IMG/VR virus record: IMGVR_UViG_638341084_000005
DNA from: a virus
Taxonomy: Duplodnaviria > Heunggongvirae > Uroviricota > Caudoviricetes
DNA: 4,683 nucleotides
Direction: 5' to 3' (one strand)
This document shows positions 159 through 1,429 of this stretch, piece after piece (position 1 is the first letter of the stretch; every line of letters begins with the position of its first letter). Both the position numbers and the translations under genes were made by a program. Below the pieces are notes generated by a model. It was not told the DNA's origin and ran no database searches. It saw only the letters and a list, made by a program, of their open reading frames with translations.

Positions 159-674
159 ATGGCGTTAACACACCACGAACTCTGTCAGATTGCGTACAAG
201 TTCCTTAAGCGCAACGGGTTCAAGGTTTGCTTTCATGACCGCTTTGTTGCTGTAACCAGTACCGGAGAACAGCCAGATGCTATGGGATTCAGAAATTCAG
301 CATCATGCCTGATAGAGGCGAAGTGTTCTCGTGCTGACTTGTTGGCAGATAGAAAAAAGCGTTTCCGTAAAAATCCCTCACTTGGCATGGGCGACTGGCG
401 ATTCTTTATTAGTGAGCCGGAAATTATTTCAGTTGAGGATTTACCTCCCGGCTGGGGATTACTTCACGTTGTTAACGGAAGAGTACGGAAAGTACATGGA
501 TGGCCCAGGGGTAATTGCTGTTGGGGTAATCCTGACGATAAGCCATTTACTGGGAATAAGCAGGTTGAATGCGATTACATGTTATCTGCATTAAGGCGCA
601 TGGAGTTGAGAGGGCACCTTAATGAAATATATGACGGTGTGATTGTTAATAAGAAAGAAGGAAACGCGGCATGA
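159..674 (+). CDS. Hypothetical protein with a possible PD-(D/E)xK nuclease-like motif (171 aa)
   Basis: ATG at 159 is preceded by AAAGGAGAG 6 nt upstream; I prefer it to the TTG at 126 in the ORF track. The stop overlaps the next start (ATGA at 671-674). Translation has E(7)...GEQPDAMGF...CLIEAKCS in the order and spacing expected for a restriction-endonuclease-like fold. This is inferred by eye, not searched. Confidence 0.6.
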   Translation: MALTHHELCQIAYKFLKRNGFKVCFHDRFVAVTSTGEQPDAMGFRNSASCLIEAKCSRADLLADRKKRFRKNPSLGMGDWRFFISEPEIISVEDLPPGWGLLHVVNGRVRKVHGWPRGNCCWGNPDDKPFTGNKQVECDYMLSALRRMELRGHLNEIYDGVIVNKKEGNAA

Positions 675-1429
675 TCACTATTACCAAAGGGCGACTGCTG
701 ACAATCAAGCAGTGGCGCGAAACATACGGACCGGGTAGCAACGTTGTACTGCCAGCAGAAGAAGCGGAAGAACTGGCACGAATTGCACTGGTATCGCTGG
801 AAGCAGAGCCGGTGGCAAAGATTATAGCTCATTACCCATTAGGAGTTGACGTAGGCAAACAAAAGTTCGTACAGGCCATTGGAGAGCTTCCTGACTTTGG
901 CGGATATCTATTTGCCGCCCCGCCAGCGCCGGTAGTGCCGGAAGAAGCAACTCCGGAAAACGTAGAAATGCTCTCTGGCTATGTTTCCACGTACAAATTA
1001 ACCGATAGCGAGCGCGATATTGCTGCCGAAATATGGAACGCCTGCCGCACCGCCATGCTTCAGTCCGGAAACTTTCGGGAAAGCAAGAATTCGTCAACCA
1101 ATAATTTTCGGGAAATCCCGGAAGCGTCAACCAGCTCTCCGGTAACTCCGGCTCTTCTGCCTGGTGGTTTCACCATTGAGGAGGCGAAGGAATTACATGA
1201 AGACCTGGTACGCAGCCACATAAGCAAGGCCTTAAGTGGCGAAAAGATGAAAAAGAAAGATCGCGATGCTGATTTGCGCTGGATTCATGGCGTTATAGTT
1301 CAGGCAGCGTGGTTTGTAAAAGCATCACTGGAGCAGAATGCACTATCGGGCAACTCTCCGGTAACTCCGGATGGTTGGATAAGCTGTAGTGAGCGAATGC
1401 CGGACGACAGGCAGGAGGTGAATCAATGA
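671..1429 (+). CDS. Hypothetical phage protein (252 aa) with an S/T/P/N-rich repeat linker and a DUF551-like C-terminal motif
   Basis: ATGA overlap with the upstream gene and a GAAGGA purine tract upstream. C-terminus ...DGWISCSERMPDDRQEV resembles the start of the DUF551 domain seen in ead/Ea22-like lambdoid proteins (recalled, not searched). Contains in-frame repeats NFRE x2 and SPVTP x2. Confidence 0.6.
   Translation: MITITKGRLLTIKQWRETYGPGSNVVLPAEEAEELARIALVSLEAEPVAKIIAHYPLGVDVGKQKFVQAIGELPDFGGYLFAAPPAPVVPEEATPENVEMLSGYVSTYKLTDSERDIAAEIWNACRTAMLQSGNFRESKNSSTNNFREIPEASTSSPVTPALLPGGFTIEEAKELHEDLVRSHISKALSGEKMKKKDRDADLRWIHGVIVQAAWFVKASLEQNALSGNSPVTPDGWISCSERMPDDRQEVNQ
1135..1151 (+). repeat. 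17-bp direct repeat copy 1 (CTCTCCGGTAACTCCGG)
   Basis: Exact match to 1354-1370, read directly from the sequence. Both copies are in the same reading frame of the 671-1429 ORF and encode SPVTP. Confidence 0.9.
1354..1370 (+). repeat. 17-bp direct repeat copy 2 (CTCTCCGGTAACTCCGG)
   Basis: Exact match to 1135-1151, 219 bp (73 codons) downstream and in frame. Confidence 0.9.

Follow-up and report, generated by a model that had tools for sequence, protein, structure and literature searches.

Near the 5' end of a 4,683-nucleotide stretch of DNA (hereafter, the window) from the Caudoviricetes record IMGVR_UViG_638341084_000005, in the exo-xis region of a lambdoid phage, we identified a gene whose 171-amino-acid (aa) product is very probably a nuclease of the PD-(D/E)xK (restriction-endonuclease) fold and a distant relative of the DNA repair protein MmcB, as judged from profile comparisons and a structural model. 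The stop codon of this gene overlaps the start codon of the next one, which encodes a 252-aa protein, and an earlier, first-pass annotation of the window had treated the two as a coupled pair with, as a hypothesis, a nuclease-based accessory function. There is likely no dedicated partnership between the two genes, the 252-aa gene being an interchangeable, partly deleted neighbour. Taken as a whole, the reading that we favour, namely, an MmcB-like nuclease that would act on the element's own DNA, encoded next to a separate, shuffled module, appears probable, with considerable room left for the alternatives weighed below.

A predicted nuclease related to MmcB

In the AlphaFold model of the 171-aa protein (predicted local distance difference test score, pLDDT, 83.9; predicted template modelling score, pTM, 0.79), helix 5-18, strands 22-24, 41-45 and 48-54, helix 58-71 and strand 80-85 follow each other in the alpha-beta-beta-beta-alpha-beta order of the PD-(D/E)xK core. 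D40 is located just before strand 41-45, with E53 and K55 placed where strand 48-54 ends; together with an upstream acid, D/E27, these residues make up the motif of the superfamily (an acid followed by D...(D/E)xK). The fold search started with this model retrieved many PD-(D/E)xK nucleases, with 3dnx (SPO1766 of Ruegeria pomeroyi) at the top. The sequence fragment of 3dnx matches the Pfam family PF06319, 'DNA repair protein MmcB-like' (expectation value, E, 1.3e-29), and PF06319/3dnx has been classed in the PD-(D/E)XK superfamily (PMC3424549).

The profile of diverse family members (alignment A3) matches the 3dnx sequence with E 1.8e-4; the shallower A1 profile yielded a non-significant match (E 0.48), and a single-sequence search of the PDB with the 171-aa protein yielded only noise. 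When the 171-aa family was compared with 26 MmcB proteins using hhalign, the two aligned over 93 columns with a probability of 97.9% (E 6.1e-13). Thus, homology of the 171-aa protein to bona fide members of PF06319 is detected at the level of both profiles and structure, and we regard the fold and the relationship with MmcB as near certain; the fold proposed in the first-pass annotation is borne out. Weak PF06319 matches were also obtained for 10 of 40 distant family members (best E 2.9e-4).

The MmcB-like proteins (PF06319, formerly DUF1052; COG5321) are of comparable size, about 150-170 aa in a single domain, and share with the 171-aa protein a signature that consists of an acid, D, ExK-SRxDFxxD, R and LP..GLL. 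The identity between 3dnx and the 171-aa protein is just 23%, and the 171-aa family is characterized by an extra conserved segment, K/R-x-F-R-x-x-P-x-x-G-M-G-D-W, which corresponds to a gap in MmcB. The genomic settings differ as well: MmcB is chromosomal, mostly alpha-proteobacterial and, in Caulobacter, SOS-regulated, whereas members of the 171-aa family reside on phages, prophages and conjugative elements of Gammaproteobacteria and beyond. Caulobacter MmcB has been described as a PD-(D/E)XK endonuclease with a protective role against mitomycin C and cisplatin, and it is for this protein only that a role in the tolerance of crosslinking damage is known (PMC9578287).

The archaeal Holliday junction resolvase Hjc (PF01870) and the AHJR-like nucleases are likewise small, single-domain PD-(D/E)xK proteins. 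Weak Pfam matches to Hjc were detected in 16 of 40 family members (best E 1.3e-4), the family profile aligns with Hjc over the D...ExK stretch at a non-significant level (E 0.33-0.6), and Hjc structures are among the weak fold matches of the 171-aa protein. In Hjc, the first catalytic glutamate is in helix 1; in contrast, the helix glutamate of the 171-aa protein, E7, is not conserved in its family, the carriers of which often encode RusA or NinG.

Because the 171-aa protein falls short of the PF06319 model, the profile comparisons place it in a sister family of the MmcB-like proteins, outside the Pfam family itself. Neither Pfam nor NCBIfam nor PHROGs provides a functional name: there is no NCBIfam match, and the PHROGs matches are to families 9263 and 631 only, both of unknown function. 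The names of all the 120 homologues listed are 'hypothetical' or similar, where there is a name at all. Given that the family profile, in a full HMMER scan, recovered 3,309 cluster representatives at E <= 0.001, the family is large as well as unnamed. Our literature search did not turn up a paper that deals with a phage MmcB-like protein, and a review on exo-xis region modelling makes no mention of a nuclease. The family is an unnamed, family-level addition to a superfamily that is well known, and its closest relative is clear. A very common phage family, represented also in Shiga-toxin phages, thereby gains a testable identity, and the link to MmcB supplies predicted catalytic residues (D27, D40, E53 and K55) as well as candidate substrates. 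Apparent domain fusions in long family members were considered and dismissed, as most of these members appear to be gene calls that read through into a neighbour (Ead_Ea22, dATP/dGTP pyrophosphohydrolase); a region of one long member is weakly similar to TniB-like ATPases.

Conservation of the predicted catalytic residues

The sequence motifs by which the fold had been recognized by eye, HHELCQ (residues 5-10), GEQPDAMGF (36-44) and CLIEAKCS (50-57), are all present, and the basic helix placed after ExK corresponds to helix 58-71 of the model. The assignment of the first acidic residue has to be revised: E7 of HHELCQ, in the N-terminal helix, is not conserved among the homologues, and it is instead D27 that is conserved as the upstream acid. 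This position is occupied by D or E in every sequence compared and aligns with E29 of MmcB. All of the 34 homologues with 58-88% identity (alignment A1) contain D40, E53 and K55; among 40 homologues with 33-56% identity (A3), this still applies to D40, with conservation of at least 90% for E53 and K55. A joint alignment (A10) combines the 171-aa protein, homologues from two virulent phages, Flavobacterium, a Rhodobiaceae metagenome-assembled genome and Salinicola, and Ruegeria MmcB; across it, D40, E53, K55, S57, R58, D60 and D64 are invariant, such that the SRxDFxxD motif following ExK is retained in virulent-phage homologues and in true MmcB alike. Altogether, the predicted catalytic and signature residues of the 171-aa protein align with E29, D39, E53, K55, R58, D60 and D64 of MmcB.

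The 171-aa gene is under purifying selection. Compared with two close alleles, it shows 13 synonymous and 6 non-synonymous differences in one case, and 10 and 4, respectively, in the other, which corresponds to a ratio of non-synonymous to synonymous substitution rates of about 0.10-0.11. In comparisons with other genera, synonymous sites are saturated, and 6-32% of the non-synonymous sites differ.

The pattern of conservation bears on the possibility that the 171-aa protein is a non-catalytic DNA-binding or regulatory factor that tunes the lysis-lysogeny decision. Inactive PD-(D/E)xK folds exist in the superfamily. Furthermore, exo-xis proteins have been reported to affect phage development (PMC10834534; PMC8614690). 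However, D/E27, D40, E53 and K55 are retained without exception across the range that extends from temperate phages to MmcB, and such strict retention is unusual for inactivated members; the family also occurs outside lambdoid phages, where no lysis-lysogeny decision exists. A purely regulatory function is therefore very unlikely.

Several alleles deserve mention in their own right. In phage YYZ-2008, a 2-bp deletion hits exactly the E53 codon of ExK (window positions 314-316, codons I52/E53), and the gene is in fragments; among the matches listed, those of E. coli O157:H7 are 514 bp long instead of 516 bp, consistent with the same deletion. Two plasmid records carry a RefSeq 'frameshifted' flag on the 171-aa gene, for which the pseudogene feature spans just 179 bp, and in two further assemblies no gene is called at the position of the homologue. 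In all four, the ORF (open reading frame) is intact, with 171 codons (3501-4016 in loci L043 and L044, 1989-2504 in L046 and L048), so the 'frameshifted' flag is probably an annotation artefact that stems from the use of the truncated O157:H7 allele as the reference.

Overlap probably without partnership

The two ORFs (159-674, from the ATG at 159, and 671-1429) and their ATGA overlap are as given in the first-pass annotation, where the overlap was taken to imply co-expression of a coupled pair. We compared 33 loci from different species that were found with the A1 profile. The gene downstream of the homologue varies, the Pfam-named ones being N6/N4 DNA methylase (two loci), DUF551 (two loci), RusA, TraC and Ead/Ea22; similarity to the 252-aa protein was detected at only four loci, each time confined to a short module. 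At 19 of the 33 loci, there is a 4-base stop/start overlap with whatever gene follows. Because these downstream genes are unrelated, the overlap in the window is generic tight operon packing rather than the signature of a two-component system. Indeed, the packing is equally tight on both sides: the upstream stop codon is one base away from the ATG of the 171-aa gene, and a 27-codon ORF overlaps the stop codon of the 252-aa gene in another ATGA. In prophages of Providencia, Serratia and Klebsiella, the homologue is in the nin region, where what comes next is RusA, a gap, a dATP/dGTP pyrophosphohydrolase or, at a distance of about 400 bp, a DUF551 gene.

Co-occurrence across E. coli points in the same direction. 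Among 5,426 complete genomes, the 171-aa gene (counted when nearly full-length) is present in 910 and the pair (counted when at least 80% of it is present contiguously) in 113, that is, the gene is about eight times commoner than the pair. With a variable downstream gene, a generic overlap and the loss of the DUF551 core from the 252-aa protein (see below), the notion of a coupled functional unit is not supported. For the search for defence systems, this is a cautionary case: a stop/start overlap in a phage accessory region does not amount to a two-gene system.

These observations also bear on the possibility that the overlapping genes constitute a two-component, nuclease-based defence or superinfection-exclusion system that is expressed by the prophage on behalf of the host. 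Such a system would be compatible with the ATGA overlap and the place of the genes in a non-essential accessory region, with a nuclease fold that is real, and with the joint movement, in E. coli, of the genes of an Ea22 / 171-aa / DUF551 block between nin and exo-xis. However, neither protein matches a defence family in PADLOC-DB 2.0 at E <= 1, and neither a promoter nor a terminator pattern was detected on the plus strand around the 171-aa gene, the two genes being embedded in an early lytic operon. Moreover, the partner is not conserved, as the locus comparison and the E. coli counts attest, and has lost its sole named domain, and homologues of the 171-aa protein are found in replication modules of strictly virulent phages. 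We consider a defence pair highly improbable. Of the functions suggested in the first-pass annotation, defence and exclusion fit worst, given the lack of a PADLOC match, the lack of an own promoter and the virulent-phage homologues, and it is recombination or, more generally, DNA metabolism that fits best.

The downstream gene as a deletion derivative

The 252-aa protein matches DUF551 (PF04448), a domain of about 68 residues, only over profile positions 1-16 of 68, at its C-terminal end, and accordingly lacks the domain as such. Its relatives with 97-100% identity are 302-313 aa long and contain complete DUF551 domains, and the N-terminal 240 residues of the 252-aa protein are homologous to these DUF551-bearing relatives. 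Alignment of the DNA with the intact 302-aa gene of locus L045 reveals that the DUF551 core was lost with a clean, in-frame deletion of 150 bp, which identifies the 252-aa ORF as a deletion derivative of a DUF551 protein of about 302 aa. The last codons of the gene (QEVNQ) are kept and contain the AGGAGG ribosome-binding site of the 27-codon ORF; this site may account for the conservation of the 'QEV' tail in DUF551 proteins. Profile searches and structure modelling, which support the fold of the 171-aa protein, assign no fold to the 252-aa protein, for which there are no sequence relatives in the PDB and the AlphaFold model is unusable (pLDDT 34).

The remainder of the 252-aa protein consists of modules joined by 'SPVTP' linkers, two of which are encoded by 20-nucleotide direct repeats ('SSPVTP' and 'NSPVTP'; Table 1). 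The linker '...GNSPVTPDGW' recurs in unrelated downstream proteins at loci of other species, and because the same peptide joins unrelated modules there, the repeat is likely a module-junction sequence, which suggests that the linker serves as a recombination junction for module shuffling. A second repeat, of 31 nucleotides, is found at positions 1070-1100 and 1103-1133.

With Ea22 of the lambda exo-xis region and the variants from Shiga-toxin phages, the 252-aa gene shares its location and a mosaic, linker-joined organization. The Shiga-toxin phage variants of Ea22 are likewise built of linker-joined modules, and one of them ends in DUF551 (PMC10834534). In contrast to Ea22, the 252-aa protein has no Ead_Ea22 (PF13935) match in Pfam and no similarity to the intact Ead/Ea22 protein of YYZ-2008, and its DUF551 core is deleted, so the label 'Ea22' that the gene bears in Escherichia phage PhiR5_1 is without sequence backing, and the pro-lysogenic activity reported for Ea22 is not transferable to it. 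We also considered and rejected the possibility that the 171-aa gene was inserted into, and split, an ea22 gene: the gene upstream matches only the N-terminal 122 residues of the intact Ead/Ea22 protein, and the 252-aa protein matches none of it.

The product of the 27-codon ORF, MSWPDAIVTLGVVFAAAFVVFSICRWG, has no Pfam family. The length, frame and hydrophobic pattern of this ORF are kept in YYZ-2008 (MNWPEAFTAVGVAIAVAFILYSLFRWG) and in L045 (MIWPEAFAITGVAMAIAFLVYVICRCG) despite many nucleotide changes, and it is preceded by a Shine-Dalgarno sequence (AGGAGG, 1413-1418). It probably encodes a real small membrane peptide, predicted to be hydrophobic. The region is, thus, prone to annotation problems: RefSeq has an intact gene as 'frameshifted', a protein devoid of DUF551 bears the name DUF551 or Ea22, and the conserved 27-codon ORF has gone unannotated.

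Spread of the family and its likely role

The strongest clue to the role of the 171-aa protein is that the family extends beyond temperate elements. It is present in 642 phage records, including those of strictly virulent Ackermannviridae and Vibrio phages. The homologue of the virulent Salmonella phage Mutine shares one base with the adjacent DNA primase gene, and in Vibrio phage SSP002, the homologue follows the genes for DNA polymerase I and two helicases. In temperate phages, the homologues occupy the nin or exo-xis early regions, close to RusA, NinB, NinG, DNA methylases and dATP/dGTP pyrophosphohydrolase. At distant bacterial loci, one group of neighbours consists of the phage replication and recombination genes for replication protein O, NinB, NinG, RdgC and DUF968, and the other, of the conjugative-transfer proteins TraV, TraC and TraI.

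In Pantoea sp. (locus L031, 3412-7086), the homologue is located between traV and traC in a conjugative type IV secretion cluster, and clusters of this kind also harbour the homologue in one or more of the loci L029-L042. In E. coli, 248 matches are on plasmids of 60-100 kb, and at least one of these plasmids also encodes a tail-associated lysozyme, which suggests a phage-plasmid.

Under the reading that we favour, the 171-aa protein would be a small, metal-dependent PD-(D/E)xK nuclease. In lambda, the exo-xis region is dispensable and is transcribed early from pL (PMC10834534); the position of the 171-aa gene in this region, together with the lack of a promoter or terminator pattern of its own, points to transcription within the early leftward (pL) operon of the phage. 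The protein would cut DNA in a structure- or lesion-dependent rather than a sequence-specific manner, with branched or damaged intermediates of replication and recombination as the likely substrates, and the benefit would lie in replication, recombination or repair of the element's own DNA. We favour such an early-expressed, structure- or lesion-specific nuclease on account of the replication-gene neighbours in virulent phages, the lack of an own promoter, the lack of a defence-model match and the analogy with MmcB. The 252-aa gene would be a separate, shuffled module that lost its DUF551 core.

A role in sequence-specific restriction is unlikely because methylases are rare as immediate neighbours: they were found in this position at 3 of the 33 loci (two N6/N4 methylases downstream, one C5 methylase upstream) and nowhere in the window. 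We therefore rejected a type II restriction-modification system, which would pair the nuclease with a cognate methyltransferase.

Several observations weigh against the favoured reading. The nuclease activity and its substrate are predicted from the fold and the motif, and the AlphaFold model is weaker at residues 21-40 (pLDDT about 70), the stretch that contains D27 and E37. The 171-aa protein matches no Pfam model, PF06319 included, at E <= 1, so the link to MmcB comes from profile and structure comparison. To judge by YYZ-2008, where the E53 codon is hit by the 2-bp deletion, and by the matching length of the O157:H7 alleles listed, the gene is dispensable for prophage maintenance. The carriers often also encode RusA or NinG, and hence the 171-aa protein is not simply their junction resolvase. 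Neighbourhood in mosaic phage genomes is weak evidence in general, and the Lar-like protein, methylases and dATP/dGTP pyrophosphohydrolase among the neighbours would suit counter-restriction equally well. Finally, a block of Ea22, the 171-aa gene and the intact DUF551 gene is shared in E. coli between the nin and exo-xis regions at about 100% identity. This block, in which the nin-region copy of the 171-aa gene is 100% identical, is a recently exchanged module, and its travelling as a whole may leave room for a local functional link between the genes.

The movement between nin and exo-xis at 100% nucleotide identity, along with patchy occurrence and mosaic flanks, is also what would be expected if the 171-aa gene were a selfish, free-standing homing-type endonuclease that spreads between phage genomes. 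This possibility is hardly credible: the gene has a stable place in the replication modules of distant virulent phages, strong purifying selection and saturated synonymous divergence indicate a long vertical history, it moves with flanking genes rather than as a single-gene insertion, and comparison with the intact Ea22 gene reveals no split target gene.

The alternative that we take most seriously, although it is unlikely, is that the 171-aa protein works by itself, as a nuclease for early counter-defence or host takeover, made as the element's DNA enters the cell or starts replicating, and directed, for example, at host DNA or at the nucleic acid of a host defence. The presence of homologues in phage early operons, in virulent phages and between traV and traC in conjugative-transfer clusters is consistent with this possibility, and so are the neighbours, which include a Lar-like restriction-alleviation protein, orphan DNA methylases and dATP/dGTP pyrophosphohydrolase; an enzyme of this last type has been reported to counter restriction (PMC10834534). 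However, the nearest characterised relative, MmcB, is a repair protein, and the virulent-phage copies are beside primase, helicase and polymerase genes, not typical early host-takeover genes. An unregulated nuclease directed against host DNA would also be hard to square with the presence of the gene in 910 E. coli genomes, even if repression of the prophage could hide such an effect.

The occurrence of the family in both phage early or replication operons and conjugative-transfer operons raises the more speculative and rather doubtful possibility that it provides mobile elements with a dedicated 'incoming DNA' factor. If so, these proteins might remove replication-blocking structures or lesions from element DNA that has just arrived or is just being replicated, or disarm host defence acting on it. 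This would be the first function for PHROG 631/9263, and the family would be the mobile-element counterpart of the bacterial crosslink repair by MmcB.

Gene order in the window

Bases 1-2200 of the window are 100% identical to Escherichia phage PhiR5_1, and a 100% identical copy of the segment 159-1429 is present in a prophage of E. coli O55:H7 RM12579. All genes discussed, from the Ead/Ea22-like gene through the integrase gene, are on the plus strand (Table 1). The Ead/Ea22-like gene that runs off the start of the window corresponds to a 182-aa coding sequence labelled 'Ea22' in PhiR5_1; the first 122 residues of its product are 92% identical to the ead/Ea22-like protein of YYZ-2008.

Table 1 Features of the window discussed in the text
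Feature	Position	Strand	Basis and remarks
3' end of Ead/Ea22-like gene; runs off window start	2-157	+	Stop TGA 155-157, one base before ATG of 171-aa gene
Shine-Dalgarno AAGGAG of 171-aa gene	147-152	+	6 nucleotides 5' of ATG at 159; read from sequence
Gene for 171-aa MmcB-like protein with predicted PD-(D/E)xK nuclease fold	159-674	+	PHROG 9263/631; no Pfam, NCBIfam or PADLOC name
Predicted catalytic and signature codons	237-350	+	D27 237-239, E37 267-269, D40 276-278, E53 315-317, K55 321-323, S57-R58 327-332, D60 336-338, D64 348-350; conservation in A1, A3, A10
ATGA stop/start overlap, 171-aa and 252-aa genes	671-674	+	Read from sequence
Gene for 252-aa DUF551-type mosaic protein without DUF551 core	671-1429	+	PHROG 60
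20-nucleotide direct repeat, copy 1, encodes 'SSPVTP' linker	1132-1151	+	95% identical to copy 2
20-nucleotide direct repeat, copy 2, encodes 'NSPVTP' linker	1351-1370	+	
Junction of 150-bp deletion	1403-1420, break at about 1410/1411	+	DNA alignment with L045 and protein alignment A2; contains AGGAGG 1413-1418
27-codon ORF, no annotation	1426-1509	+	ATGA overlap with stop of 252-aa gene
DUF4222 gene	1514-1756	+	
44-aa gene	1760-1894	+	
Excisionase gene	1913-2167	+	
Integrase gene	2201-3487	+	

Downstream of the integrase gene, there is an mlrA gene cut at both ends (3562-3975, plus strand), with a MerR helix-turn-helix match that starts at profile position 26 and a match to the MlrA helical domain that ends at position 54 of 75. 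A fragment of an IS66-family transposase gene (3896-4597, minus strand) abuts the mlrA fragment. Given this arrangement, the prophage appears to be integrated in mlrA, with an IS66 element inserted beside the attachment site.

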